The translations under genes were made by a program, and so were the position numbers. From contig CASFHP010000010.1 of the NCBI GenBank assembly GCA_949294555.1, forward strand, positions 34,191-98,190: a stretch of DNA of 64,000 nt, in the 5' to 3' direction. The stretch comes from an uncultured Eubacteriales bacterium. Lineage in GTDB: Bacteria; Bacillota; Clostridia; TANB77; CAG-508. This document shows, in pieces, positions 5,272-61,170 of the stretch. The stretch's first letter is position 1; each line of letters begins with the position of its first letter. Under the pieces are notes generated by a model, which saw only the letters and a list, made by a program, of their open reading frames with translations, was not told where the DNA came from and did not search any database.

Positions 5272-6204
5272 TTAAAGCTTCTCTAAAAATTTCTTTTTCA
5301 TCTCATAAGATGAATGAACATAACGATTTAATGTAACATCCACACTGGCATGCCCTAAAATTTCACTGAGTGATTTTATATCCATTCCTACTTTTATACA
5401 ATTGGTTGCAAATGTATGTCTTAACACATGAAAATTATATTCCTTTACTTTACTAGCTTTCAAAATTCTTTTAAACATATTTTGATAACTTCTTGGTTCA
5501 ATATATTGTTCTTTCGACCCTGTTAAAAAAAAAACTTCTTCGCCTTGTTTTTTATACAAATCTTTTAATATATGATAAATCTTATCTGACATGGGTATGG
5601 CTCTTATGGAAGATTCTGTTTTACTACTATCTATAATAACTTCTGTTTTCTTTTCGATTGTATATACTCTCTGTAAGGTTTTCTTTATATTAATTAATTT
5701 CTTTTCAAAGTCTATATTTCCCCACTTTAATGCACAAATTTCTCCTATTCGCAATCCTGTATTTAAACAAATCAGTATGCCTATACTTTTTAAACTATTT
5801 TCTTTTAAACAATATTTTTCTAATCTATTAATCTCCTTCTTTGATAACACACTAATTTCTTTTGCGTGCACTTTTGGCGAAATAATCAAATCCAAATGTA
5901 TATTCATGTCATATTTTTGATTGGCATATTTTAAAATTGATTTCAAAACATTCAGTATTTCTTTTACTGATTTTGGGGATAATTCTTTTGTTAAATCATT
6001 TGTCATTTGATTAAAATCGTATTTTTCTAAGTCTTTTTTTCTTAGTCTTCCTATTCTATCTTTTAAATATTTATCTATGCAATATGCATATTTATAATAT
6101 GTAGATTGTTTGATTGTTGTCTTCTTTAAAGCTAACCATTCTACTGAAAGTTCTTCAAATCGAATGGTATTGCTTCTACTTCTTAATTTATCTAATATCC
6201 ACAT
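5272..6204 (-). CDS. Tyrosine site-specific recombinase (phage-integrase family)
   Basis: 310 aa. C-terminal catalytic region GLRIGEICALKW ... HVLRHTFATNCI ... LGHASVDVTLNRYVH (R, HxxR, H/Y residues). Confidence 0.85.
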   Translation of the reverse strand: MWILDKLRSRSNTIRFEELSVEWLALKKTTIKQSTYYKYAYCIDKYLKDRIGRLRKKDLEKYDFNQMTNDLTKELSPKSVKEILNVLKSILKYANQKYDMNIHLDLIISPKVHAKEISVLSKKEINRLEKYCLKENSLKSIGILICLNTGLRIGEICALKWGNIDFEKKLINIKKTLQRVYTIEKKTEVIIDSSKTESSIRAIPMSDKIYHILKDLYKKQGEEVFFLTGSKEQYIEPRSYQNMFKRILKASKVKEYNFHVLRHTFATNCIKVGMDIKSLSEILGHASVDVTLNRYVHSSYEMKKKFLEKL

Positions 6205-6579: not shown

Positions 6580-7188
6580 ATGCAAAAATTATTCAAAACC
6601 AAAAAGGAACGGCTGTTATTATTGGGATTAATTCTTTTAATAATTGGCAGCACGATGTTGCTCGTGGCAACACTCTTAAACAAGAAAAATATTGAGCAGG
6701 AGCTCAAAAATGGAGATTTGTCTCCTGCGCAGGAAGCTTATGAGTACCTGCTCAAAAATGGAGACCTGTCTCCAGAACAGTCAGTTGGTATTGTTGCCAA
6801 TATTCGGCAACAGTCCAATTTTGACACATCTGTCCATGAGGGAGAGTTCCCCTCAACAGGACTAATGTGTTGGACAATGGCTCGTGAAGAGCAATTGTCC
6901 GAGTTCGCAAAGGAGCGTGGAGAAGAAGTCACAAACTTCTATCTCCAACTGGACTTTATTCTGGAAGAGTTAAAAGACTCTTCAGAATACGCCAATTTTC
7001 AGCTGGCTAACTATCATGGTTACACAGTTGAAGATTGGAATGAAGCCCAATCTTCTGAAGAGGCTGCCTTAGCCTTTGCATATTTATATGTACGGCCAGG
7101 GCACCTCAACGAGACAACTCTTAGGGACTTGGCAGCAGAACTTTCTGCTGAGGTCCCTCAATCCTCAAAAGGCAGTCAAGTTCTTTGA
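6580..7188 (+). CDS. Membrane-anchored/secreted protein with a lysozyme-like (phage-tail-lysozyme-type) domain; GC-richer than its surroundings
   Basis: 202 aa with an N-terminal TM helix (LLLLGLILLIIGSTMLLVATLL). Segment GIVANIRQQSNFD...GLMCWT...LDFILEEL resembles the GIxGNxxxESxF lysozyme-like motif (recalled, not searched). A 69-nt sample counted by hand is about 49% G+C. Contains an internal duplication LKNGDLSP(A/E)Q. Confidence 0.5.
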   Translation: MQKLFKTKKERLLLLGLILLIIGSTMLLVATLLNKKNIEQELKNGDLSPAQEAYEYLLKNGDLSPEQSVGIVANIRQQSNFDTSVHEGEFPSTGLMCWTMAREEQLSEFAKERGEEVTNFYLQLDFILEELKDSSEYANFQLANYHGYTVEDWNEAQSSEEAALAFAYLYVRPGHLNETTLRDLAAELSAEVPQSSKGSQVL

Positions 7189-7445: not shown

Positions 7446-7490
7446 AATTCGACATTTTTGAGACAATTCTCAACCTGTCCCCAATTGTCT
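7446..7490 (-). repeat. GGGGAC-core repeat, family C copy (overlaps the stop of 7489-8052)
   Basis: aattcgacatttttgagacaattctcaacctgtccccaattgtct. It is homologous to 41646-41691 and to the arms of 27844-27957. Confidence 0.8.
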
Positions 7491-8052
7491 ACATATGAAA
7501 TTTTCTGATAATTGCTTCTTTAACATCTCTTGCGGAAAGTATTATGGTTAAAATAAAATTTACAATCGATATTCCTATTGCCACATAACTTAAAACATAA
7601 TTGTCTATCATCCCTTTTTGCATAAAATAAATAGGAATTAAGCTGTATATGCAAATAACTAATTGATATATGGCATATCGCATATATTTTCTATGGCTAA
7701 CAATAGTTAATACAAGCATGGTGACATTGGCTATTATAATAATGATAGGAATTGAGATTTCCAAAGACCAGCCTCCAAATCCTAAGTTATAATCTATGTA
7801 AACCGTTAATAGTGAAATGGCAATGGCTTGTATCATGACATGTCCTGCAATATTGGTTCTTTTGTCTATAGAATATTTTGCTGTTATCCACGCATATAAT
7901 ATGCCACTATTGGCAAGTGCTGCCCAATGAATTTCTGGTGTGGTTAATTTGTTGATGATGGTTAATATAATGGCAATTCCTACAGATACACCTAACAAAA
8001 TTTTTATTAACAAATTCCTTTTTTTACTATTTAATTTTTTCGGATATAGCAT
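7489..8052 (-). CDS. Polytopic membrane protein of unknown function (DUF6320-like, recalled)
   Basis: 187 aa with about 5 hydrophobic helices. It lies downstream of the HxxxD acyltransferase, as I recall for DUF6320 proteins in Clostridia. Confidence 0.45.
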   Translation of the reverse strand: MLYPKKLNSKKRNLLIKILLGVSVGIAIILTIINKLTTPEIHWAALANSGILYAWITAKYSIDKRTNIAGHVMIQAIAISLLTVYIDYNLGFGGWSLEISIPIIIIIANVTMLVLTIVSHRKYMRYAIYQLVICIYSLIPIYFMQKGMIDNYVLSYVAIGISIVNFILTIILSARDVKEAIIRKFHM

Positions 8053-10607: not shown

Positions 10608-10643
10608 AAAATGTCTCAAAAGGAAACGTCCCCAATTGGACAC
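10608..10643 (+). repeat. GGGGAC-core repeat, family B copy 2 (identical 36-mer)
   Basis: aaaatgtctcaaaaggaaacgtccccaattggacac. Its last base overlaps the xerD stop codon (cta, 10643-10645). Confidence 0.9.
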
Positions 10644-11524
10644 TATGCTCTTGGATGTGCTTTTTTATAAATATCTCTTAAGCCTTCATCTTGGAATTGC
10701 ATATATACTTGTGTTGATGATATGTCTGAATGTCCAAGCATTGTTTGAATTGCTCTTAAGTCTGCACCATTTTGTAATAAATGTGTTGCAAATGAATGTC
10801 TCAAAACATGTGGTGTGATATCTTTTGTGATATGTGCTTGTTCTTTGTAATATTTAATAATTTTCCAAAATCCTTGTCTTGTAAGTCTGCCACCATTTAT
10901 ATTGACAAATAATGCTTTTTCATCTTCGCTTTTGATTAATACACCTCTTGCTTCTTCTATATATGCTTTTAATGCTTTTAGTGACATAGAACCTAATGGA
11001 ATAATTCTTTGTTTATTTCCGTTTTTACAGATGACATAAGCTTCCTCTAAGTTAACATCATCTATGTCTAAAGATATAATTTCTGTTACTCTCATTCCTG
11101 TTGCATAAGCAAATTCTAGCATTGCTTTATCTCTTACACCTTTTAAATCAACCGTGTCTGGTTGTTTTAGTAGCAACTCTACTTCTTTAGAAGTTAATAC
11201 ATTTGGTGTTCTTTTTTCTATTTTTGGAGATTGTATATTGGCTGTTGGGTCTACTTTTATTTTCTTATTTTTTAAGATAAATTGGAAGAATGACCTAATA
11301 GATGCAATACATCTTGATATACTTGAAGGTTTTTTTCCTTTATCTTGTAATTCTTGTATATAGTTTTGTACATCTTCTTCTTTTACTCGATTATAGTGAA
11401 TTCCGTGCTCCTCTAAATATTCTCTAAATTGTTTTAAATCTCTCTTATATGATTCCAATGTGTTTTTTGATAATTTTTTGTCATTTTCTAAAAAGTTAAA
11501 AAAGAATTTTAATTGTCTATCCAT
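10643..11524 (-). CDS. xerD: Tyrosine recombinase XerD/XerC type
   Basis: 293 aa. Motifs ATGMRVTEI, HVLRHSFATHLL, LGHSDISSTQVYM. Housekeeping-like neighbourhood next to spoIIM. Confidence 0.8.
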   Translation of the reverse strand: MDRQLKFFFNFLENDKKLSKNTLESYKRDLKQFREYLEEHGIHYNRVKEEDVQNYIQELQDKGKKPSSISRCIASIRSFFQFILKNKKIKVDPTANIQSPKIEKRTPNVLTSKEVELLLKQPDTVDLKGVRDKAMLEFAYATGMRVTEIISLDIDDVNLEEAYVICKNGNKQRIIPLGSMSLKALKAYIEEARGVLIKSEDEKALFVNINGGRLTRQGFWKIIKYYKEQAHITKDITPHVLRHSFATHLLQNGADLRAIQTMLGHSDISSTQVYMQFQDEGLRDIYKKAHPRA

Positions 11525-14729: not shown

Positions 14730-16250
14730 TCACTCAATAAATTGTGGTTTATGATTTTCTATTGTCCATTTTTTCCACCCAGAGGTTAATGTGCTGTTAT
14801 TCGTTATATATGTATTCAATTCATTAATTGTCTCATCTGTTAGCTCTTCTAACATTGTGGCATTTACTGTTATATTTTTCCCTGCGCTCTGTTGTACAAT
14901 ATTGCTTTTTAGAAAGTAGCAATTTTCAAATTTATTTGCTGAAACATTGTTCCACATTGCTGCCCCTACAATTCCTCCAATAGTTGATCCTGTTATATTT
15001 CCTGCACTATATACATTTATGCATCCTGCATGGTCATATACATATCCAATGATTCCTCCAACCGTAGCACCATTTATGTTTCCTAAATTATAACAATTAT
15101 ATATAAAAGGTGTAGCAGCTGCCGTTCTAGTTCCTCCTAAAATTCCTCCTGCCCAAATATCTCCCATAATTTTGGTTTCTTCGGAATTATAACAATTAAC
15201 AATTGTTAAACGTCCAGTACCCATGATTCCACAAATTCCTCCTGCCCATGATTTATCTCCTTCACTTATGATATTTGCTTTGTTATAGCAATTACTTATT
15301 GTTATTTCATTATATCCATTAGCAAAAATCCCACCACATTCTTCTGTTCCCATTACATTCCCACTAATGCCTAAATTTTGTATAATTCCATTATCTATTG
15401 TCTGAAATAATCCTGCTCTTCCTGTCTTATTTATATATATATTCTGTATCTCATTTGATTGTCCATCAAATGTACCTGAAAAATTCATGATTGGTGTAAA
15501 ACCACTTCCAGTAGTATTGGTTAGTAAATCTCGTAATTCTTCTATTGAATTACAATTCAAAATCTTTCCATTTGCATAAGATAATCTAGACTCAAAATTT
15601 AAAGTTCTTCCCAATTTTATATAAGCATCTTGATAAGCCTCATAATTTTGAGACCATTCTACCAAATCCTCTATACACCATATTTCATAAGGCTTTCCTC
15701 CCTCTTCTGTTTCTGCTTTTCCGTTTAATTCTTCTCCATCTATTCCAACGGTTATATCTCCTGGATATTTATCCTTTATAATTGGATACTCTCCTTCAAT
15801 ATTTCCATCTTTATCCACTATATAATATCGATCACTATCAATAAATATAACTTCAAAGTCATCTCCTACATCATTTACGTCTGTCTTTCCTTCTCCTGTT
15901 TCTTTATCTAGTTGCTCTTGTAGTTTATCCTCTTCGATATTTCCATATTTATTCTTTCCCATTGCTTGCACAATTGCTTCTTCCAAAACATCTTTCTCAT
16001 TGGCTATTTCTGCTTCTTCTTTAGCGCTTCCAGCATTTCCAATAATTCCATTATCTCCTGTTATAGCATTTATTGTAATTCCTGCTAAGATAAGTAAAAT
16101 AATAATTGTTATTACTAAGACTAATAAGGTAATTCCTGTTTGGTTTTGTATGTTAGTTTTAATTTGTGTTTTACAAAATTTGTTCTTAAAATTTGCTTTC
16201 ATTTTCTCTATTTCTCCTATGACTTTTGTTTTTTCTTCTTCTCTTCTCAT
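14730..16250 (-). CDS. Surface protein with a pilin-like hydrophobic N-terminus and C-terminal GLUG-like repeats (paralogue 1)
   Basis: 506 aa. N-terminal segment TGITLLVLVITIIILLILAGITINAITGDNGII. The C-terminal half is built of GG[IL]xG ... I.NCYN repeats (AGGICGIMG, AGGILGG, VGGIIGYVY, IGGIVGAAM). SD is aagagg. Confidence 0.65.
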   Translation of the reverse strand: MRREEEKTKVIGEIEKMKANFKNKFCKTQIKTNIQNQTGITLLVLVITIIILLILAGITINAITGDNGIIGNAGSAKEEAEIANEKDVLEEAIVQAMGKNKYGNIEEDKLQEQLDKETGEGKTDVNDVGDDFEVIFIDSDRYYIVDKDGNIEGEYPIIKDKYPGDITVGIDGEELNGKAETEEGGKPYEIWCIEDLVEWSQNYEAYQDAYIKLGRTLNFESRLSYANGKILNCNSIEELRDLLTNTTGSGFTPIMNFSGTFDGQSNEIQNIYINKTGRAGLFQTIDNGIIQNLGISGNVMGTEECGGIFANGYNEITISNCYNKANIISEGDKSWAGGICGIMGTGRLTIVNCYNSEETKIMGDIWAGGILGGTRTAAATPFIYNCYNLGNINGATVGGIIGYVYDHAGCINVYSAGNITGSTIGGIVGAAMWNNVSANKFENCYFLKSNIVQQSAGKNITVNATMLEELTDETINELNTYITNNSTLTSGWKKWTIENHKPQFIE

Positions 16251-16310: not shown

Positions 16311-16337
16311 TTCTTTCAGTTCAATACTCTAAGAAAA
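16311..16337. repeat. Inverted repeat, left (IR-L1) of candidate inverton 1
   Basis: ttctttcagttcaatactctaagaaaa. Its reverse complement matches 16500-16525 through the 12-nt core TAGAGTATTGAA plus AAAGAA. Confidence 0.6.
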
Positions 16338-16340
16338 CAT

Positions 16341-16387
16341 AAAAAAACCTGAACCCTCTAATATATTTAGTGGTTCAGATTTTTTTA
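16341..16387. terminator. Bidirectional hairpin terminator inside candidate inverton 1
   Basis: An A7 run, then stem ctgaaccctctaa / ttagtgggttcag (1 mismatch), then a T7 run. In the present orientation it terminates the ABC-F transcript. Confidence 0.65.
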
Positions 16388-16456
16388 TTACTATAAATAC
16401 TTTTTAAAAATAAATTTTTTTCTAAAATCTTTCTTGAAATTTCTTTTATCATTTTA

Positions 16457-16485
16457 TTGACTTTACTATGTTTTATTGTTAAAAT
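16457..16485 (+). promoter_or_regulatory. Near-consensus promoter inside candidate inverton 1, pointing away from the GLUG gene
   Basis: TTGACT (16457-16462), 17-nt spacer ending in TGt, TAAAAT (16480-16485). There is no plus-strand gene downstream. Confidence 0.55.
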
Positions 16486-16499
16486 CAAATTGTAAAATT

Positions 16500-16525
16500 T
16501 TTTTTAGAGTATTGAAATCAAAGAA
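16500..16525. repeat. Inverted repeat, right (IR-R1) of candidate inverton 1
   Basis: ttttttagagtattgaaatcaaagaa. About 22 of 26 positions match the reverse complement of IR-L1 (hand alignment). Confidence 0.6.
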
Positions 16526-23329: not shown

Positions 23330-24682
23330 ATGAAAAAACGTGTTTTTATAACATTATTTTTAATTTTAATTTTAGTAGCAAATTTGTCTTTTGCTTCTTA
23401 TGAAACTGTTACTATGACGGTTGTCGAAGAACCTGTATGTACAATCGAGATTGGAGAAAATTCTAGTTTTGAGAAAAGATTAATTGAAAAAAATCTAAAT
23501 GATAAAGAAGTTACTCTTCAATTACAGGTAACCAATGAAGAGACCTCAATTCAACCAACTGGAGAAATTATGTTAGTTATTGACAACTCTTTGAGTATGG
23601 AAGAAACAGTTGATGATGGAACAACTACTCGAGAAGAATTGGTTATTGAATCTGCTAATACATTGGTCAATACCATTTTAGAGGGAAATGATAATTTACA
23701 AGTTGGTGTTGTTAGTTTCTCAACAAATGAAGATGTTTCTTTAGAAGGAACCATTAATGACGCTAGTTTAGTTTCTGATTTATCTTCTGACCCTCAAGCT
23801 TTAGTATCTGCAATTTCTAATATTCAATACACTGGACCTAGAACAGACTTAGAAGCAGGACTAAATTTAGCTAGCCAATATTTTACAGAAGAAGATAACA
23901 ACAAATATATCATTGTTTTAACAGATGGTATACCAAATGTTGCCTTAAATTATGATGGTATGTATTATTCTGATGATGTAATTAATAAGACAAAAGCACA
24001 ATTACAAGCTCTAGATACTGCTGGATATGATGTTATCACAATGCTTACAGGCATTACAGAAACAGACAGTGTTCCTGCAACTAGACAAGATGATAAAACT
24101 TATGGAGATATCATCGAAGAAATCTTTGGTACTGAAGAAAATCCAACAGTTGGAAAATTCTATAATATACAAGATAATGAAATTGAACAAACCATTACCA
24201 ATGATATTTATAATGACCTATTACCAATTGAACAAGTCTTAACAGATATTACTGTTACAGATTATTTCCCTCAAGAAATCATTGACAATTTTGAATTTGC
24301 TTATGTGTCTGAGCCAAATATCGGAACAGTATCTGCTGAAGTCAACACAGAAAACAATTCTATTACATGGACCATTTCTGAACTACAACCAGGAGAAACA
24401 GCAACTGTACAATATACTTTAAGTTTAAAAGAAGATTTTGATGAAAGTATTGTTGGTCCTATCTTAGATACAAACGAAAGAGTGGATATTACGTATACAA
24501 GTCTTAATGGAGAAACTGTTGAAGATACCTCTGATGTTACACCTAAATTAAAACTTACAGAACCACCTGTTGTATTACCAGCAGCTGGTAGACCAATTAT
24601 GATAGCTTTATTTGTAGTTGGTATTGGAATTCTTGTTTATTCATTCTCAAGATTCACCTTTCTTAACAAAAATATGAAATAG
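23330..24682 (+). CDS. Secreted von Willebrand factor A domain protein with a C-terminal LPxxG-like anchor
   Basis: 450 aa with a signal peptide. MIDAS motifs DNSLSM and LTDGIPN. The C-terminus reads LPAAG, then a hydrophobic helix, then a basic tail. Confidence 0.75.
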   Translation: MKKRVFITLFLILILVANLSFASYETVTMTVVEEPVCTIEIGENSSFEKRLIEKNLNDKEVTLQLQVTNEETSIQPTGEIMLVIDNSLSMEETVDDGTTTREELVIESANTLVNTILEGNDNLQVGVVSFSTNEDVSLEGTINDASLVSDLSSDPQALVSAISNIQYTGPRTDLEAGLNLASQYFTEEDNNKYIIVLTDGIPNVALNYDGMYYSDDVINKTKAQLQALDTAGYDVITMLTGITETDSVPATRQDDKTYGDIIEEIFGTEENPTVGKFYNIQDNEIEQTITNDIYNDLLPIEQVLTDITVTDYFPQEIIDNFEFAYVSEPNIGTVSAEVNTENNSITWTISELQPGETATVQYTLSLKEDFDESIVGPILDTNERVDITYTSLNGETVEDTSDVTPKLKLTEPPVVLPAAGRPIMIALFVVGIGILVYSFSRFTFLNKNMK

Positions 24683-25190: not shown

Positions 25191-27284
25191 CTATCCTCGA
25201 ATTCCTTCTTGTTGCTCTCGTATTCCGTTTATTCCTCTTATTGTTTCTTGTTCAATATTACCAACAGTTTCGTAACGTTCTTGATTTGCTACGTCGACAA
25301 ATTCTTCTAGTTTATGAGATTTTTTTAGACCTAATTTTCCTACAAAATTTATTTCTCTTAATGGATTATCTTCTTCACGCATATTTTCTAATATTTTTAC
25401 ATTTTCTATATATCTTGTTCTATAAACTTCTTTTTCATCTTCAAAAAATAGTAAATCTAGTAATAATTCCATTTTTTCTTTTTCTGGTAAATCTTCTTTC
25501 AATTTTTCTTTTAATTCTAAGTTTGTCTTTTCCTCTTCTGTTATTTGTTCTTTCTTTTCGATTTCTACTAATTCCTGCGATACTTGTACAATTCTTCCAA
25601 ATAGTCGTATATTTTCAATCCATGTGTCTGGATTTTTTGTTCCATTTGCTACTCTAAATTCGATTGTATTTTTACCATTATTAACATTTAGTAGATTCAT
25701 TCCAAAGAATTTTTCTCCATCTTGTACAGATTGTATTCCTGATATCAATTCTTCTAGGTCTTCTTCTCCATCAATTTGAATACTACCTTTTTTAATTGCC
25801 TCCTCGATTATTGATGTAAATGATGCTGCATTCTGATCAACTTCACTTCTAGGTATATTCCCAGGCTCATTACTCATTAAATACATAATTCTTTCTGTAT
25901 TTCCCCAGATTTCAAATAAATTTAAATAAGATTCTTTACTAGTTAAATAATCTGCACCTATGTGAACATGTCCACCACAGTTATCTGTTGCTTCTTGCCC
26001 TATTTGTTCTAACATTTGGCAAACCATGTAAATTTCTTCTACATTATCTGGTGTATCTCGTAAAATAGGAGAAATTGTTTCTGCACCTTTATTCGGTTCT
26101 AAACTGCCATCATATTCTATTTTCCAATGTCTTTTTATTTCAAAGAAGTCATCTCTTCTTTCGATAATTTTTTCTAATTGGCATAACTTTCTTCCTTTTG
26201 GTCCTTCTGTTTCAATTTCTATACCAATTGTCATTTCTGGTCCTAAATCGATTTCTTGATATTTTCTATTTTGCTTTAGGAAAAGTTCTTTTAATGTTTC
26301 TCTATCTTTTAAAGACATTTGAATAAGCACCTGATTTGCTTTTTCTTTCATCGTTTTAGCTAATGATAATTTTTGTTCATCATTTTGAAGTGTAGCAAAA
26401 ACCATTGATTGATTAGTTTCATCTTTTAGTTTTGTTTGTGCATACTGTAACTTAAAATCCTCATCCTCTATACTCATTAATATTTGTGTAATATCTTCTT
26501 CGGTTTTAGCATAAGATAATGATTGCTTTTTTAATTTATCTTCTTTCAATGAATTAATAATTTCATCTTTATATTTTTCTTCTATAACAGGTATATATTG
26601 TAATCTATCTTCTTCTGGTAATGTTATAATAATCTTTAATTTATTTATATCTGATTTTAAATTTGTAATTGCCTTTTCTTTATTTTTTATATCATTTATT
26701 TGTTCTATTAATGACATTTTTTCATAATCTGTGTGTAATACTGTTACTGCTTGCAATAATTGTTCATCATTTTCAAATGAAATGCTTTCTATTACCTTTT
26801 TTCTTTCATAATCGTCATCAATAATATAGTACAAACCATCAATTTTGTTTTCTGTATTTATAAATGTAGTAATAATTTCTCTACGATTACTCATATTTGT
26901 TATGTAGTAAAACATAGCCTCCATTTTATTTTTATCTAATTGCATTGTCTTAATAATTTCAGTTCTTGCATATTCATCTTGAAACATTGCTAAACTTTCT
27001 GATTTTTCATGATCTGATGTTATACTTTTAGCAACATTTACCGCTCTTATACTATCTTGTGGTAAATTTCTTATATAGTCCAACTTTAAATCATCTGACT
27101 GTAAACTGCAAATCAATTCATCTACATCATTTTCATACAATAAATGCATCATTTTTAATTTATTTTCATCTTTTAGTAAATGCATAACTAAAAATTTGAT
27201 ATAAGCATAATTGGTTTCTTCTTTTAGCCTCTCTAGCTTTTGCTCTTCTGTTAAATTAATTAATCTTTCTTCTCTTTTATCCAT
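25191..27284 (-). CDS. Repeat-domain protein with a C-terminal amidoligase (glutamine-synthetase-like COOH-NH2 ligase, Amidoligase_2-type) domain
   Basis: 697 aa. C-terminal motifs IGIEIETEG, KIEYDGS, AETISPIL, CGGHVHIG, NTIEFRVANG. The N-terminal ~340 aa consist of about 12 helical repeats. Confidence 0.65.
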   Translation of the reverse strand: MDKREERLINLTEEQKLERLKEETNYAYIKFLVMHLLKDENKLKMMHLLYENDVDELICSLQSDDLKLDYIRNLPQDSIRAVNVAKSITSDHEKSESLAMFQDEYARTEIIKTMQLDKNKMEAMFYYITNMSNRREIITTFINTENKIDGLYYIIDDDYERKKVIESISFENDEQLLQAVTVLHTDYEKMSLIEQINDIKNKEKAITNLKSDINKLKIIITLPEEDRLQYIPVIEEKYKDEIINSLKEDKLKKQSLSYAKTEEDITQILMSIEDEDFKLQYAQTKLKDETNQSMVFATLQNDEQKLSLAKTMKEKANQVLIQMSLKDRETLKELFLKQNRKYQEIDLGPEMTIGIEIETEGPKGRKLCQLEKIIERRDDFFEIKRHWKIEYDGSLEPNKGAETISPILRDTPDNVEEIYMVCQMLEQIGQEATDNCGGHVHIGADYLTSKESYLNLFEIWGNTERIMYLMSNEPGNIPRSEVDQNAASFTSIIEEAIKKGSIQIDGEEDLEELISGIQSVQDGEKFFGMNLLNVNNGKNTIEFRVANGTKNPDTWIENIRLFGRIVQVSQELVEIEKKEQITEEEKTNLELKEKLKEDLPEKEKMELLLDLLFFEDEKEVYRTRYIENVKILENMREEDNPLREINFVGKLGLKKSHKLEEFVDVANQERYETVGNIEQETIRGINGIREQQEGIRG

Positions 27285-31316: not shown

Positions 31317-31377
31317 AATAAATTATTTTATTACGAATGTGATTGGAAATATTTTAGAATTTGTTGGATAATTTATT
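31317..31377 (+). repeat. Half-copy of palindromic element P2 (matches 58222-58282)
   Basis: ataaattattttattacgaatgtgattggaaatattttagaatttgttggataatttatt vs ataaattatttaattacgaatgtgattggagatgttttagaatttattacataatttatt, about 6 mismatches in 59 by hand. It abuts or overlaps the stop of CDS 31373-33400. Confidence 0.8.
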
Positions 31378-33400
31378 CAAATGCAGGATATCCTTCTTCT
31401 CCCAATTTCCATTTGTTCCAATCTGTTGGATATGTTTGTTCTCCTTCTTTTCTATAAGAATTTAATAAATCTACAAATTCTTGTGTCTTAATATCATTTT
31501 CTGTTTTTTGTATTGCATTGTCAACAATATTTTCATCATCTACTTTGCTCATATTTCCAATTGATTTTCCACTAGTATAATATGAATAATTAATTTCCAC
31601 TTTCATTTCTATATTGATAATATCATTATTAATTGTTCCTATCATACTTCCATAATCAGTATTTTTTCCCACAGTCCAACAATTTTCAATATAAATATAA
31701 TTCTTTGCACATATCTTTCCTTGATTTCCAACAATTCCTCCTACAATACTATTTTCATGTATTACCTCTCCAGTATTAAAAGAATTATAAATACTTAATA
31801 TTAATTCACTATCATTAGCACTTCCTTTACTTGCTCCCACAATTCCTCCTGAACCCGCTAAAGTTCCGTTTCCTAATATACTTCCTTGATTGTATGTATT
31901 CTTTATTTCAACTTTTTGTGTATTATAACCTAGAATACCTCCTACTGCACTCTGATTACTTGTTCCATTTAAAGTAACATTTCCATAATTTCCACAATTA
32001 TCAATTTTGCAGTCACTTGAATTGTTATATCCTATAATACCTCCTACTGTTACATTTCCAGATATATCTCCTTTATTTATACAATTTTTTACATTATCAC
32101 CATTTCCAATGATACCTCCTGCTCCGCCATATCCCCATCTTCTTCCTGTTATTACTATGTCTCCTGTATTTGTACAATTTGTTATCTGTGCACTATATCC
32201 AATAATGCCTCCCACCATATTATATCCTGTTACATTAGCATGATTAGTACAATTTTCTATTAAATTGGCATACTGCCCTATTATTCCACCTGTATGTCCA
32301 GCACCTTTAATTTCTCCAGAAATTTCTAGATTTTTTATTATCGTATATTGTATATGTCCTGTTCCGAATAATCCAATACTTCTTCCAAATCCATAATTAT
32401 TTAATTGTGTGTCATTCTCATAATTAATATATAGATTACTTATTTTATAAATTTCCTCTGTTTCTTTATCTTTTCCATCAAAATTTCCATAAAAAATATT
32501 ATTAAGTCCAATTGGTTTAAAACCTGTTCCTGTCGTCATCTCATTCATTAATGTGTTTCCATCATCTGCATTTCCATTTATATCTCCAAAGTCTGTTCTT
32601 TCACTATTTTGATAAGATAATTTTGATTTAAAATTCAAATTGGTTTTTAATGCTATATATTTTCCACTAAAACTATTTCTATTAGCCGTTGTTACTTGTA
32701 CTGGCTCTCCATTTTCTAATTTTATACCGCTTCCATTTACTATATTAGAAAAAGCTACTAAATCTTCTATGCACCAAATTTCATATGGTTCTGCCTCTGT
32801 TCCTGCTAATGTTTTTCCATCTGTTCCAACTGTAATATCTCCTGGATATTTATCTTCTATGATATCTTGTGCTTCTCCTACATTTCCATCTTTATCAATA
32901 GTATAATATCTTCTACTTTCTTTGAATACTACTTCAAATTCTTCTCCTATATCTGTTGCTTCTGTTTTTCCTTCTCCTGTTTCTTTATCTAGTTGTTCTT
33001 GCAATTCTGCTTCTTCGATATTTCCATATTTATTGTTTCCCATTGCTTGTACTGTTGCTTTTTCTAGTATCTCTTTTTCATTGGCAATTTCTGCTTCTTC
33101 TTTGGCTCTTCCTGCATTTCTAATTAGTCCATTATCTCCTGTTATAGCATTTATCGTAATTCCTGCTAAGATTAGTAAAACAATAATTGTTATGACTAAT
33201 GCCAGCAAAGTAATTCCCTTCTGGCACTTTACTTTGTTTTCTATTTGTTGCTTTACTACTTTTTGAATCTGTTTTTCTACATGATTTTTTTGATTTTTTT
33301 CTTCACACTTTATATTTATATATTTTTGATTTATTATTCTTTTTGTTTGTTCATTTTTATGACTTTCTTTTTGTTGTTTTCTCTCTTTCATTTTTTCCAT
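31373..33400 (-). CDS. Surface protein with a pilin-like hydrophobic N-terminus and C-terminal GLUG-like repeats (paralogue 2)
   Basis: 675 aa. N-terminal KGITLLALVITIIVLLILAGITINAITGDNGLI. The next ~150 aa are nearly identical to paralogue 1. The C-terminal repeats include TGGIIGQY, VGGIIGYSA, AGGIIGNG, VGGIIGYNN, VGGILGYN, SGGIVGAS, VGGIVGNQ. Confidence 0.65.
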   Translation of the reverse strand: MEKMKERKQQKESHKNEQTKRIINQKYINIKCEEKNQKNHVEKQIQKVVKQQIENKVKCQKGITLLALVITIIVLLILAGITINAITGDNGLIRNAGRAKEEAEIANEKEILEKATVQAMGNNKYGNIEEAELQEQLDKETGEGKTEATDIGEEFEVVFKESRRYYTIDKDGNVGEAQDIIEDKYPGDITVGTDGKTLAGTEAEPYEIWCIEDLVAFSNIVNGSGIKLENGEPVQVTTANRNSFSGKYIALKTNLNFKSKLSYQNSERTDFGDINGNADDGNTLMNEMTTGTGFKPIGLNNIFYGNFDGKDKETEEIYKISNLYINYENDTQLNNYGFGRSIGLFGTGHIQYTIIKNLEISGEIKGAGHTGGIIGQYANLIENCTNHANVTGYNMVGGIIGYSAQITNCTNTGDIVITGRRWGYGGAGGIIGNGDNVKNCINKGDISGNVTVGGIIGYNNSSDCKIDNCGNYGNVTLNGTSNQSAVGGILGYNTQKVEIKNTYNQGSILGNGTLAGSGGIVGASKGSANDSELILSIYNSFNTGEVIHENSIVGGIVGNQGKICAKNYIYIENCWTVGKNTDYGSMIGTINNDIINIEMKVEINYSYYTSGKSIGNMSKVDDENIVDNAIQKTENDIKTQEFVDLLNSYRKEGEQTYPTDWNKWKLGEEGYPAFE

Positions 33401-33469
33401 TTTCTACCTCTTTTCTTTTATTTTCCTTTGTAATTACTTAATTTGTAGCTTCTTGTCACTTACAATTTT

Positions 33470-33496
33470 TTCTTTCAGTCAAATACTCTAGGAAAA
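33470..33496. repeat. Inverted repeat, left (IR-L2) of candidate inverton 2
   Basis: ttctttcagtcaaatactctaggaaaa, nearly identical to IR-L1. Confidence 0.55.
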
Positions 33497-33500
33497 AATA

Positions 33501-33550
33501 AAAAGCAGAAATCACTTGTTATTCTTTATTTACAAGCGATTTCTGCTTTT
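33501..33550. terminator. Bidirectional hairpin terminator inside candidate inverton 2
   Basis: aaagcagaaatcacttgt / acaagcgatttctgcttt stem with A-rich and T-rich flanks. Confidence 0.65.
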
Positions 33551-33603
33551 CATTTTTTATTATTTTCATCATTTAAAATTTATATTTTTATCTTCTCTTT
33601 CTA

Positions 33604-33632
33604 TTGACTTTCCTACATTTTATTGCTATTAT
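33604..33632 (+). promoter_or_regulatory. Near-consensus promoter inside candidate inverton 2, pointing away from GLUG gene 2
   Basis: TTGACT (33604-33609), 17-nt spacer, TATTAT (33627-33632). It matches the inverton 1 promoter region at 24 of 31 positions by hand. Confidence 0.5.
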
Positions 33633-33648
33633 ATCTTTAGTTTTAGTA

Positions 33649-33674
33649 TCCTTAAGTATTTGATTCTAGGAAAA
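33649..33674. repeat. Inverted repeat, right (IR-R2) of candidate inverton 2 (more degenerate)
   Basis: tccttaagtatttgattctaggaaaa. The core AGTATTTGA plus flanks match the reverse complement of IR-L2 at about 19 of 26 positions by hand. Confidence 0.4.
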
Positions 33675-33692
33675 TTATATACATTTTTTAGT

Positions 33693-34136
33693 TTATTTAT
33701 GTTGCTTTAACATCCATATAATTTTACTATATTCTAAGATATATTCATCAATTAAACTAGATGTTGCATAAATATGATTTTCATCAGCTAATTTTTTTAT
33801 TGTCATTGCCTTTTGCAATAAGTTTTCAAAATCTTTTAGTATTTTATCTAATACAATTTCTCCTTCAATTTTTGCATTTTTTGCTTCTTCAATACATGTT
33901 TTCTCTAGATAATCTTTCATTGTACCTAGAGGTTGTTTATCCAAAGTCAATATATGTTCTGCAATTTCATCAATTTCTTCATTGATTTTGTCATAATATT
34001 CTTCTAATTTTTCATGCAAAACAAAAAAGTTTTTTCCTTTCACATTCCAATGATAATTTTGTAATTTTCTATAAAATACATTCAAATCCGCAAGAAATTC
34101 ATTTAATGTATTTACCATTTCTTCCATTTTCTTCAC
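33693..34136 (-). CDS. dps: Dps-family DNA-protection/ferritin-like protein
   Basis: 147 aa. Motif YRKLQNYHWNVKGKNFFVLHEKLEEYY. Confidence 0.85.
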   Translation of the reverse strand: MKKMEEMVNTLNEFLADLNVFYRKLQNYHWNVKGKNFFVLHEKLEEYYDKINEEIDEIAEHILTLDKQPLGTMKDYLEKTCIEEAKNAKIEGEIVLDKILKDFENLLQKAMTIKKLADENHIYATSSLIDEYILEYSKIIWMLKQHK

Positions 34137-50171: not shown

Positions 50172-50246
50172 TGGCTGGGCTGGCTAGATTCGAACTAGCG
50201 CATGCCAGAGTCAAAGTCTGGTGCCTTACCGCTTGGCTACAGCCCA
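50172..50246 (-). tRNA. tRNA-Gln: tRNA-Gln (UUG), CCA encoded
   Basis: Reverse complement TGGGCTGTAGCCAAGCGGTAAGGCACCAGACTTTGACTCTGGCATGCGCTAGTTCGAATCTAGCCAGCCCAGCCA. Folded by hand into a cloverleaf with anticodon loop CU-UUG-AC. Confidence 0.93.
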
Positions 50247-50253
50247 ATATATA

Positions 50254-50331
50254 TGGGGTGGAAGATGGGACTCGAACCCACGGTCTCCAGTGCCACAAAC
50301 TGGCGCGTTAACCAACTACGCTACATCCACC
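50254..50331 (-). tRNA. tRNA-His: tRNA-His (GUG) with G-1:C73, CCA encoded
   Basis: Reverse complement GGTGGATGTAGCGTAGTTGGTTAACGCGCCAGTTTGTGGCACTGGAGACCGTGGGTTCGAGTCCCATCTTCCACCCCA. Anticodon loop UU-GUG-GC, with one U-U mismatch in the acceptor stem. Confidence 0.9.
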
Positions 50332-58464: not shown

Positions 58465-61170
58465 TTATTTACAATCATACCAATTATTTGCTTCTGAAAT
58501 TTCTGCTACTAGTGGTATTTTTAACTGTATAGCTGATTCCATTTCCTTTTTCATAATGTCTTTTACTTCTTCTTTTTCATTTTCAGGTGCCTCTATCATC
58601 ATTTCGTCATGCACTTGTAAAACGATTTCTGCTTTTAATCCCCTTTTCTTTATTTCTTTATTAACATTTATCATAGCTATTTTCATAATATCTGCTGCCG
58701 TTCCTTGAATTGGTGTATTCATAGCCACTCTATTTCCAAATTGTCTTACCATATAGTTTTTTGAATTTAATTCTGGTACATATCTTCTTCTGTGGAACAA
58801 TGTTTCCACATATCCTTTTTCTTTTGTCTTTTCAATAATATTCTCCATAAATGCTTTTATTCCTGCATATTCTGTTAAATATTCATCAATGTATTGTTTC
58901 GCTTTTTTTCTTGAAATACCTAGTTGTTCTGCTAGTCCAAAGTCACTAATTCCATAGACAATTCCAAAGTTAACAGCTTTTGCATTGCTTCTTTGTTCTT
59001 TGGTAACTTCGTTAATTGGTGTTTTAAATACTTTTGAAGCTGCTTGTTTGTGGATATCCTCATTATGTTGAAAAGCTTCTATCATATGCTTGTCTTCTGA
59101 AATATGTGCCAATACTCTTAATTCGATTTGAGAATAATCGGCGTCAATATAGACTTTTCCTTCTGCTGGCTTAAATACTTTTCTTACACGTTTTCCTAGT
59201 TCAAATCTTGTTGGAATGTTTTGCAAATTTGGTTCTGTTGAGCTAATTCTTCCTGTTGCTGTTATTGTTTGATGAAAGAATGAATGAATTCTTTTTGTCT
59301 TTGGATTAATATATGGTTTTAAACCTTCTACATATGTAGAGTTTAATTTCATTAATTGTCTATATTCCAATATTTTTCCGATAATTGGGTCTTCTCTTTT
59401 TAATTTTTCTAAAACATCTACATCTGTAGAATATCCATTTTTAGTCTTTTTAATAACTGGTAATTGCATTTTTTCAAAAAGGATTTCTCCCAATTGTTTT
59501 GTAGAATTAATGTTAAATTCTTCTCCTGCCATTTCATGTATTTCTTTTGTTAATACTTCGATTTGGGCTGTTAATTCTTCCCCAAAGGCTGTTAGTTCTT
59601 TTTCATCTACATACATACCATTCCATTGCATGCTAGACAATACCTCTACTGTTGGCATATCAATATTGGTATATAGTTCAAAACTGTTTGTTTCTTTTAA
59701 TTTTTCTATCACAATATTATTGATTTTTTCAATGATATAGGCATACAATGTATATTTTTCAGATGTTTTTTGTATATCTTCTGCTTTTGTTTCTTCAAAT
59801 AACGTCATTTGTTTTTGATTATCCTCTTCTGTACCTGTATATTCATCCAAATCCAATTCTAAATATTGCATAGCCAAACTTTTTAAGTCTAATTTATTAT
59901 TGGTAGGATTTAAAATATAGGCACCTATGGATATATCATTTTCAATTCCGTCTAGTGTAATTCCTACTTGTTTTAGTAAAATATACTCCTTTGTTAAGTT
60001 GATACTTGTCTTTTTGATTTCTGGATTTTCAAATACATCTTTGAATGTTTTTATTTCGTCTTCTTGTAGCTTTAAATAATATGCTTCTTGCCTATCTTTT
60101 TGATATACACTAATCCCTGTTATATTTTCTTTTATGATATTTTCTGGATTTTCATTTTTTTCTGTTTGTAAATAAAATATCATGTATTTGTCAGTATTAA
60201 TTTGTTCAATAACTTCTTTGATGGATTTTTGGACAGTTGTATAGTCTATTGTATATTTTGCTTCTTCTTCACTATTTTTTTCGCCAGTTAAATGGAAACG
60301 TTCTATATATCTATTAAAATTTAATTCTTTAAACAATTGTAAAACCTTTTGTTTGTCCCATTCTTCTACTTTAAATTGTTCTAAGGTGTTTTCGATTGGT
60401 ACTTCTAAATTAATGGTTCCCAATGTTTTTGACAATTCTGCTAATTCCTTATTATCTTTTATTTTTTCTCTTTGTTTTCCTTTTAAATCATCTTCATTTT
60501 TTTCGATTTTGTCATATAAATTTTCAATAGAACCATATTTTTGAATTAATGATAATGCTGTTTTTTCGCCAATTCCTGGAACCCCTGGAATATTATCAGA
60601 ACTATCGCCTTGTAATCCTTTAACTTCAATTAATTGCTTTGGCTCTATTCCATAAGTTTCTATAATTTTATTTCTATCAAATAAATCGGTTTCTGTTTTT
60701 CCACCTTTTGTTCTAGGAATTCTGATTGTCACATTATCTGTTGCTAATTGAAAGGTATCTCTATCTCCAGATAATATTGTCACATGAAGTCCTTGTTTTT
60801 CGCCATATCTAGAAAGTGTACCTAATACATCATCTGCTTCATACCCTTCTTTTTCCACTATATCAATGTTCATTGCTTTTAATATTTCTTTAATTACGGG
60901 CATTTGTTCTGCAAGTTCGTCTGGCATTCCCTTTCTGTTGGCTTTATAGCCTTCATATAATTTATGTCTTGCAGTTGGTGCCTTTAGGTCAAAAGCTACT
61001 GCCATATATTTTGGATTTGTATCTTCGATTAGTTTAAATAAAATGGCTAAAAAACCATATACGGCATTTGTGTATTTTCCGTCTTTAGTTGTTAGCATTT
61101 TACTTCCCATAATTCCATAAAATGCTCGATTCATGATACTGTTTCCATCTACTAAAACAAAATTATCCAT
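58465..61170 (-). CDS. polA: DNA polymerase I
   Basis: 901 aa. A 5'-nuclease domain (GIPGVPGIGEKTA), a 3'-5' exo-like middle region, and polymerase motifs DYSQIELRVLAH, RSNAKAVNFGIVYG, QVHDE. Confidence 0.97.
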   Translation of the reverse strand: MDNFVLVDGNSIMNRAFYGIMGSKMLTTKDGKYTNAVYGFLAILFKLIEDTNPKYMAVAFDLKAPTARHKLYEGYKANRKGMPDELAEQMPVIKEILKAMNIDIVEKEGYEADDVLGTLSRYGEKQGLHVTILSGDRDTFQLATDNVTIRIPRTKGGKTETDLFDRNKIIETYGIEPKQLIEVKGLQGDSSDNIPGVPGIGEKTALSLIQKYGSIENLYDKIEKNEDDLKGKQREKIKDNKELAELSKTLGTINLEVPIENTLEQFKVEEWDKQKVLQLFKELNFNRYIERFHLTGEKNSEEEAKYTIDYTTVQKSIKEVIEQINTDKYMIFYLQTEKNENPENIIKENITGISVYQKDRQEAYYLKLQEDEIKTFKDVFENPEIKKTSINLTKEYILLKQVGITLDGIENDISIGAYILNPTNNKLDLKSLAMQYLELDLDEYTGTEEDNQKQMTLFEETKAEDIQKTSEKYTLYAYIIEKINNIVIEKLKETNSFELYTNIDMPTVEVLSSMQWNGMYVDEKELTAFGEELTAQIEVLTKEIHEMAGEEFNINSTKQLGEILFEKMQLPVIKKTKNGYSTDVDVLEKLKREDPIIGKILEYRQLMKLNSTYVEGLKPYINPKTKRIHSFFHQTITATGRISSTEPNLQNIPTRFELGKRVRKVFKPAEGKVYIDADYSQIELRVLAHISEDKHMIEAFQHNEDIHKQAASKVFKTPINEVTKEQRSNAKAVNFGIVYGISDFGLAEQLGISRKKAKQYIDEYLTEYAGIKAFMENIIEKTKEKGYVETLFHRRRYVPELNSKNYMVRQFGNRVAMNTPIQGTAADIMKIAMINVNKEIKKRGLKAEIVLQVHDEMMIEAPENEKEEVKDIMKKEMESAIQLKIPLVAEISEANNWYDCK

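Follow-up and report, generated by a model that had tools for sequence, protein, structure and literature searches.

In Escherichia coli, the tyrosine recombinases FimB and FimE invert fimS, a single locus of 314 bp whose repeats measure 9 bp and whose switching requires IHF and Lrp. An element of similar design, here called locus 2, lies upstream of a gene for a GLUG-repeat protein (GLUG2) in an uncultured Eubacteriales bacterium (assembly GCA_949294555.1, contig CASFHP010000010.1, positions 34,191 to 98,190 of the forward strand; this 64,000-nt stretch is referred to as the window). Locus 2 (33470-33672) is probably a promoter inverton that still switches and that is OFF in the window, with its predicted promoter directed away from GLUG2; we infer its invertibility from its membership in a family of such elements, the normal quality of its distal site, and concerted changes of its cores between strains. 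Like fimS, it would be a short invertible segment that has flanking inverted repeats, carries a sigma-70 promoter for the gene of a surface structure, is acted on by tyrosine recombinase and is biased OFF in the population, although the comparison is one of design and not of sequence relationship. Unlike fimS, the GLUG switches have 25–29-nt dyads as sites, an inner segment of ~150 bp and a built-in two-way terminator, and they occur at tens of loci per genome.

Closer in host are the switches of Clostridioides difficile, where one tyrosine recombinase, RecV, is described as acting on several elements, among them those of cwpV, flgB, cmrRST and pdcB (PMC5903667, PMC7446863, PMC9286219). These share with the GLUG switches a host of the class Clostridia and a position upstream of surface or signalling genes. 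There are about seven of them per genome, their repeats are dissimilar, and they often act after initiation (through Rho or terminator formation); the GLUG switches, in contrast, have the promoter inside the segment, uniform arms and variable cores, and here too the likeness is of design, not of homology to RecV. Groups of Clostridia invertons have also been linked to tyrosine recombinases in gut communities (PMC11892184). The invertons of Bacteroides, Akkermansia and Clostridia resemble the GLUG switches in that there are many per genome, with common repeat and promoter motifs, surface-associated genes and an invertase nearby, but differ from them in repeat motif, host clade and regulated family. 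The term GLUG does not occur in PMC11892184, and a literature search found no paper linking GLUG proteins with invertible elements. The elements described here are a previously undescribed switch family of uncultured gut Clostridia, of the fimS/RecV promoter-inverton type.

The sites of the GLUG switches have the same geometry as those of the Xer/dif system, with an arm, a short centre and a second arm, and the candidate enzyme in the window finds its best matches among Xer models. The dif site, however, occurs once per chromosome, serves in the resolution of chromosome dimers and has unlike arms enclosing a centre of 6 bp, whereas the sites of the GLUG switches have arms of the same type around a locus-specific centre of 5–7 nt, stand in inverted pairs, and have inversion as their outcome. 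Heterospecific lox sites such as lox511 and lox2272 are laboratory constructs for Cre recombinase that have common arms and recombine only with a site of the same spacer. The GLUG switches resemble them in having 33 natural cores on common arms, matched within pairs, and it is this covariation that suggests a dependence on the spacer.

Organization of locus 2 and its gene

The features of locus 2, the related locus 1 and the recombinases of the window are listed in Table 1. On the minus strand the order is dps, the distal site (33672-33648), the complement of the promoter, the hairpin (33558-33493), the proximal site (33494-33470), the leader and GLUG2. The leader is the 69 nt between the proximal site and the start codon and contains a good ribosome-binding site; it holds no known RNA element, as Rfam at gathering thresholds matches only two tRNAs in the window (two adjacent genes at 50175-50330, minus strand).

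Table 1. Positions of the switch components, regulated genes and recombinases in the window.
Feature	Position	Strand	Details
Candidate invertase, Xer-like tyrosine recombinase	5272-6204	-	310 aa; Pfam Phage_integrase, 1.6e-33
XerD, housekeeping tyrosine recombinase, beside spoIIM	10643-11524	-	TIGR02225, 365.8 bits (cut-off 329.6)
GLUG paralogue 1 (GLUG1)	14730-16250	-	Downstream of the locus 1 inverton, which is OFF in the window
Locus 1 inverton	16311-16525		Sites 16311-16335 and 16501-16525; hairpin 16339-16388; promoter 16457-16485 (+)
GLUG paralogue 2 (GLUG2), putative regulated gene	31373-33400	-	675 aa
Proximal recombination site, locus 2 (IR-L2)	33470-33494		TTCTTTCAGT-CAAAT-ACTCTAGGAA; 10-nt arms in dyad around a 5-nt core
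Hairpin, putative bidirectional intrinsic terminator	33493-33558		A-tract before, T-tract after; inside the invertible segment
Inner segment predicted to invert with both inner half-sites	33495-33647		Contains terminator and promoter
Predicted sigma-70-type promoter	33604-33632	+	TTGACT-17-TATTAT, TG extended -10
Distal recombination site, locus 2 (IR-R2)	33648-33672		ATCCTTAAGT-ATTTG-ATTCTAGGAA
dps/ferritin-like gene upstream of the locus 2 switch	33693-34127	-	Pfam Ferritin, 5.9e-22

Each site is a dyad, TTCYTWNAGT-N5-ACTNWARGAA, in which two inverted arms surround a short centre; the consensus was built from 67 site pairs. Because the arms are palindromic, the direction of a site is set by its 5-nt core alone. 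The proximal site of locus 2 has no mismatches to the consensus and, with a weight matrix derived from the family, the top score of the window (29.5 bits); the distal site has two mismatches and scores 24.6 bits, rank 22 among 67 distal sites. Reverse-complemented, the distal core is identical to the proximal one, and the 7-nt cores, which comprise the 5-nt core and the invariant T and A flanking it, are complementary at 7/7 positions. The spacing between the sites, 153 nt, is the family mode. The best four weight-matrix positions in the 64 kb are the sites of loci 1 and 2 (29.5, 28.5, 24.6 and 18.1 bits), and a 27-nt pattern derived from both proximal sites has three matches in the window where 0.00 are expected (100 shuffles). 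The next-best position (11.6 bits, at 60962) lies within the polA coding region and was discarded as a chance match.

The hairpin has 27-nt arms that are 93% complementary, and its predicted folding energy is -26.3 kcal/mol on the plus strand and -33.0 on the minus strand (z = -7.6 and -11.2), with none of 200 shuffled sequences as stable. A simple terminator scan missed it because of its 12-nt loop, and it is the sole terminator-like structure between dps and GLUG2. The predicted promoter matches the consensus at 10 of 12 positions and is the best of the region; a promoter consensus scan found no minus-strand match between the proximal site and the GLUG2 ATG. A preliminary description of this DNA, made from the sequence alone, had placed these parts in the same order as at locus 1, and all of them are where it put them apart from small numerical corrections. 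The match between the two repeats, estimated there at ~19 of 26 positions, is measured at 20 of 26 (77%), with 33468-33493 pairing with 33649-33674 across a gap of 155 nt in a repeat search, and the promoter is, as described, aimed away from GLUG2 into the 3′ end of dps. The similarity it noted between the promoter cores of loci 1 and 2 also holds, although the count is 23 of 31 positions and not 24.

GLUG2 matches Pfam PF07581 (Glug) at 33.3 bits (cut-off 20.5), while GLUG1 has no Pfam match of its own and is 46% identical to GLUG2 over 488 residues. In the GLUG2 product a long N-terminal tail rich in Lys and Glu precedes one hydrophobic helix (GITLLALVITIIVLLILAGITI), and the ectodomain consists of GLUG repeats; a reasonable reading is that it is a variable cell-surface protein. 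The helix, a G followed by ITLLALVITIIVLLILAG, is prepilin-like, and homologues such as that in contig L020 (L numbers denote contigs compared with the window) start with MKKETG followed by ITLLALV. Position +5, however, is Ala and not Glu, and pilin models give only sub-threshold matches to the GLUG2 N-terminus, the best being GspG (E = 0.036, 14 bits against a cut-off of 88.9). The cytoplasmic tail varies in length among homologues (P0002–P0007 and L020), from ~55 Lys/Glu-rich residues in GLUG2 to 5–6 in L020, and the ribosome-binding site is kept. There are 812 GLUG2 homologues at E<=1e-50, nearly all from gut metagenomes in ENA, and the gene is intact with ~88–100% identity across strains. 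The window has a G+C content of 28.7%, and its closest relatives are metagenome-assembled genomes (MAGs) of uncultured gut Clostridia, not Fusobacterium. Between loci 1 and 2 are genes for a VWA-domain protein (23330-24682, plus strand) and a 697-aa amidoligase-domain protein (25191-27284, minus strand).

Related switches with matched cores and inversion at sister loci

A search with GLUG2 against one genome per species yielded 70 loci in ~20 MAGs, and ~160 site pairs are located upstream of GLUG-family genes across ~15–20 related gut MAGs. In a census made without any filter for core matching, 66 of 70 unique pairs with a spacing of 130–170 nt have fully complementary 7-nt cores, the four exceptions being two spurious pairings and the pairs in L102 and L104, which are discussed below. 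Under a stricter definition of the site, the 5-nt cores are identical in 59 of 62 unique pairs, in which 33 different cores are represented; in 10,000 trials with shuffled partners, identical-core pairs average 3.4 and never exceed 11. Cores are not strictly unique within a genome, and a single MAG (CALXKD) has 10 distinct cores among 13 invertons. When 185,579 species genomes were scanned with a perfect-arm pattern, almost only one MAG clade was matched, and 97 further unique identical-core pairs were obtained, 76 of which adjoin a GLUG-family N-terminus.

The internal layout is conserved with the sites. The promoter motif TTGACTTTNCTANNTTTTATTG is kept across family loci, the distance from the end of the -10 element to the next site is 13–16 nt in 123 of 125 segments, and the part of the segment behind the promoter folds (median -11.2 kcal/mol) whereas the part containing the promoter does not (-2.1). 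Orientation is strongly skewed: the promoter points away from the gene in 54 of 60 gene-selected invertons and toward it in four, and the 76 site-selected invertons include 63 that are OFF and seven that are ON. The ON rate is thus 4/58 or 7/70, with ~90% of copies OFF in consensus assemblies, which fits a system in which few switches are ON at a time. We are very confident that this family is truly invertible and that the element is one of its members.

Inversion is seen directly at locus 1, which has arms of the locus 2 type around a different core (TCAAT/ATTGA), an inverted repeat of 34 nt that is 82% complementary, and a promoter with a 10/12 consensus match and the TG extension. Two ENA assemblies encoding an identical 506-aa GLUG1 carry the locus in opposite orientations, OFF in L071 and ON in L072, and the promoter of L072, TTGACTTTACTATGTTTTATTGTTAAAAT, faces GLUG1 across the proximal site. 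The arms of locus 1 share only ~13 identical nt, fewer than the k-mers of assemblers, so that the ON junction in L072 derives from real molecules. This junction has a C where the distal arm of the window predicts a T, which is read as a single-nucleotide polymorphism of the strain that restores the consensus arm TTCTTAGAGT and is uninformative on the crossover point.

A second case is an orthologous switch in two species, OFF in L010 and ON in L016. Outside the segment the two loci align collinearly on both sides, at 129/154 and 163/208 identity, whereas the inner segments match at 133/160 positions as reverse complements against 70/169 on the same strand; the inner half-sites are exchanged between the two, which places the crossover inside the core. 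The extent of the segment predicted to invert at locus 2 (33495-33647) is drawn by analogy with this pair. The switch is the middle one in syntenic arrays of three GLUG-family genes (L010 1065-6442, L016 802-6115), each gene with its own inverton and core, and it is the only one of the three whose orientation differs. L020 is a further ON example, with the order site, hairpin, promoter, site, ribosome-binding site and ATG. Homologous loci, to which the preliminary description had pointed as the place to look for both orientations, therefore contain them at locus 1 and at the L010/L016 switch. It had also raised the question of whether loci 1 and 2 switch independently: in assembly ERZ16268192 locus 1 is ON (L072) and locus 2 is OFF (L108), which suggests that they do.

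Some loci are relics in which an inverton, often with its promoter toward the gene, precedes an open reading frame of only 40–60 aa that comprises the leader and the start of the helix (..GITLIALVITI..) and is followed by unrelated genes. These include L131 2515-2729, where the gene stub has 41 codons, and loci in L126, L130, L155, L160, L174, L178, L183 and L192; the types of truncation are shared by several MAGs.

Recombinase, orientation record and alternative explanations

Two recombinases are encoded in the window, the Xer-like candidate and XerD, and no serine recombinase or Resolvase-family match was found among the scanned window open reading frames of at least 120 aa. The candidate has the catalytic Arg (LRIGE), HxxR (HVLRH), His (LGHAS) and Tyr (NRYVH) when aligned to the XerD of the window, and its best NCBIfam matches are XerA (110 bits) and XerC (84 bits), which fall below every NCBIfam cut-off. 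The MAG clade that carries the sites also has orthologues of the candidate at 73–97% identity. Of 15 MAGs with such an orthologue, 14 turned up in the site scan, and MAGs with only 60%-identical orthologues are absent from it. Beside such 60%-identical orthologues (L092–L094) no convincing inverted repeats were found, a result that is uninformative. In L082–L085, which represent at least four species, an orthologue is located directly downstream of a GLUG-family gene. In the window itself, genes for a phage-tail-lysozyme-domain protein (6580-7188, plus strand) and a DUF6320 protein (7489-8052, minus strand) lie just upstream of the candidate.

The identity required over 5 nt, the swapping of inner arms and the lack of a serine recombinase among the scanned frames of the window together point to a tyrosine recombinase. 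A serine invertase of the Hin/Gin type, which has a 2-bp core and a small recombinase gene in or beside the invertible segment, was considered and rejected, as the scanned open reading frames contain no Resolvase match and the covariation spans 5 nt rather than 2, although such an enzyme may be encoded beyond the window. The arm sequence TTCCTAGAA of the sites recurs, all 9 nt of it, in the left arm of dif of Bacillus subtilis, ACTTCCTAGAATATATATTATGTAAACT, a sequence confirmed in PMC3025954; this is compatible with an Xer-derived enzyme and is a lead, not a test.

The dps-linked locus 2 is found in 12 assemblies (the window, L068, L073–77, L101 and L105–108), and a near-identical locus linked to a PDDEXK_2/Rpn-family gene in five others (L001, L100 and L102–104); all are OFF. 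The GLUG2-recN block is thus preceded by dps in window-type contigs and by the PDDEXK_2/Rpn-family gene elsewhere, and the breakpoint falls exactly at the inverton. Exact-protein look-ups gave no match for GLUG2 (675 aa), the 147-aa GTG-start form of dps, or RecN. The 144-aa ATG-start dps product is present in five other contigs with the same arrangement, and the locus 2 contigs reached through it and through members of the GLUG2 cluster are all OFF. A scan of JGI metagenomes with the 22-nt locus 2 promoter core gave no matches, indicating that this organism is absent from the JGI collection. Across the lineages of locus 2 the cores have changed in concert, being CAAAT/ATTTG in the window, L068, L077, L101 and L105–107, TAAAT/ATTTA in L073–76 and L108, and CAGAT/ATCTG in L001, L002, L004, L100 and L103.

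Many MAG and metagenome contigs have one of their ends no more than a few hundred bases upstream of a gene of the GLUG family (L008, L009, L014, L018, L020, L023, L025, L026, L031, L033, L034, L038, L043, L044, L046, L062, L067, L072 and L077). L077 terminates exactly at the outer edge of the locus 2 proximal site. These ends fit either a branching of the assembly graph at switches of mixed orientation or the conservation of the 5′ regions.

Several points weigh against an active switch at locus 2. Its ON orientation occurs in none of the 17 assemblies; consensus assemblies cannot show minority orientations, however, and with a family ON rate of ~7–10% a count of 0/17 is expected ~20–30% of the time, which makes it weak evidence against switching. 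In L102 and L104 the distal core is CAGAT but the proximal one is CAAAT or TAAAT, so that 6/7 and 5/7 positions match. As the dps- and Rpn-linked loci have virtually the same inner segment, a chimeric assembly is the simplest reading of these two contigs, although they may alternatively be real hybrids, perhaps locked. The promoter and terminator of locus 2 are only predictions, from consensus matching and folding respectively, and the assignment of the recombinase is circumstantial. On the other side, the concerted core changes, the normal distal site and the low ON rate of the family argue that locus 2 is still active. The concern raised in the preliminary description that IR-R2 is too degenerate to recombine is not borne out, since the distal sites of flipped loci score lower than its 24.6 bits (R1 of locus 1, 18.1; L016, 21.7; L020, 20.2). 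The proposal of a second promoter inverton built like locus 1 and lying OFF is accordingly supported, with the ON orientation unseen and the switching of locus 2 itself inferred.

The most serious alternative for locus 2 itself is that it is a former inverton now locked OFF, its distal site having drifted from TTCY.. to ATCC.. and from ACT.. to ATT.., and that GLUG2 is either silent or expressed in some other way. The uniformly OFF record of locus 2 and its near-identical sister locus, the two consensus mismatches of R2 and the 77% pairing of the arms would all be expected of such a locus, and relics such as L131 2515-2729 do occur in the family. We nevertheless consider it unlikely, because R2 outscores the distal sites of loci that have demonstrably flipped, GLUG2 is intact across strains, the OFF record is compatible with the family ON rate, and concerted changes of the cores in three lineages would be unexpected without selection for recombination. 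On size and structure alone the element could be taken for a miniature inverted-repeat transposable element (MITE) with an incidental promoter and terminator and no switch, since at ~200 bp it has terminal inverted repeats of 25–29 nt, many copies per genome, and an internal promoter and terminator. Correia-type elements are similar in size, terminal inverted repeats and copy number and also contain an internal promoter and terminator. What contradicts a non-autonomous transposon of this kind is that 76 of the 97 copies selected by their sites stand at a fixed position before genes of a single family, and the remaining 21 are mostly relics that keep the first few dozen codons of a GLUG-family gene. 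The proximal arm moreover belongs to a conserved 5′ leader, the cores differ between copies and match within each copy, unlike transposon terminal repeats, and a given locus occurs in either orientation while its flanks stay as they are and its inner half-sites trade places. The MITE reading was rejected on its conflict with fixed position, copy-specific cores and in-place inversion, and retains a negligible probability.

Scarcely more credible is the reading of the dyads as operators for a dimeric transcription factor around a divergent or antisense promoter, which would produce antisense RNA to dps or another upstream gene, with regulation through binding instead of inversion. Each site is indeed a palindrome-like dyad, and the outward direction of the promoter at ~90% of loci could be taken as its normal one. 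Operators, though, would have no need of cores that are specific to a locus and agree between its two inverted sites, the stretch from the site to GLUG2 contains no minus-strand promoter match, and physical inversion is documented at locus 1 and between L010 and L016. The upstream neighbours are also unrelated (dps, ABC-F, other GLUG genes, PDDEXK_2), which makes a conserved antisense target unlikely. As a sole explanation, operators were rejected on the core covariation and the documented inversion. A different question is which enzyme would invert the segment. The co-occurrence of the Xer-like candidate with the sites in one clade and its synteny with GLUG-family genes, although confounded by phylogeny, incline us slightly toward it as the invertase of this system. 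The alternative, that inversion depends on XerD, alone or together with an XerC not seen here, through the dif-like arms, or on an enzyme encoded outside the window, is a less likely one that nonetheless carries appreciable weight: TTCCTAGAA is common to the arms and to the left dif arm of B. subtilis, a true XerD is present in the window, and the window covers just 64 kb of the genome. Almost all bacteria have housekeeping Xer proteins, however, whereas the sites are confined to one clade, and it is the orthologues of the candidate that track this clade and that, in at least four species, directly follow a GLUG-family gene; XerD is less likely than the candidate to be the invertase.

Proposed mechanism and implications

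In the switch that we favour, a segment of ~150 bp containing an outward-facing sigma-70 promoter and a two-way terminator would be bounded by inverted 25-nt recombinase sites. The 10-nt arms of each site probably bind a recombinase dimer, and strand exchange probably takes place within the 5-nt core (7 nt with the invariant T and A). The sites would be paired, and strands exchanged in the identical cores, by a tyrosine recombinase, most likely the product of 5272-6204, and the segment would flip. In the OFF state the promoter would fire toward the 3′ end of dps and the terminator would stand directly before the proximal site; this position of the terminator, with no minus-strand promoter match, would leave GLUG2 insulated both from a promoter of its own and from read-through out of dps. 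In the ON state the dps transcript would stop at the same hairpin, read from the other side, and the promoter, 16 nt from the proximal site, would transcribe across that site and a leader of ~70 nt into GLUG2. As the sole dps terminator lies within invertible DNA, this arrangement would explain why it needs to work both ways. The ON junction predicted for locus 2 consists of the 5′ untranslated region, the proximal outer arm, the core CAAAT and the reverse complement of 33632-33647, with the form TATATCTTTAGTTTTAGTATCCTTAAGTATTTGACTGAAAGAAAA. One switch design placed before many GLUG-family genes per genome, most of them OFF, would produce stochastic, combinatorial variation of the surface.

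A more tentative proposal, which we would not yet back over its alternatives, is that a single Xer-derived recombinase runs tens of switches, the dif-like arms being shared and the private 5-nt cores making the sites natural heterospecific ones. If this is true, each GLUG gene would switch independently, and recombination between loci, with the scrambling of the chromosome it would bring, would be largely suppressed; exchange where cores coincide would explain why the GLUG2-recN block is joined to dps in some genomes and to the PDDEXK_2/Rpn-family gene in others. The natural core variants on common arms also constitute a data set for the spacer specificity of tyrosine recombinases. The consensus of the site and the match of cores within a pair make such switches findable from sequence alone, without reads.

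These loci also bear on the interpretation of metagenomes, as GLUG switch loci break assemblies, and with ~90% of the copies OFF in consensus the presence of a gene does not equal its expression. Promoter inversion is one of the chief ways in which gut bacteria alter their surface and so escape phages and the immune system of the host. The GLUG switches extend this strategy to a clade of uncultured AT-rich Clostridia found in the human gut (Brazilian, Hadza and Nepali) and in chickens, on a scale of at least 13 switches in one MAG and ~160 in the sampled loci, with a protein family of no known function as the one regulated.

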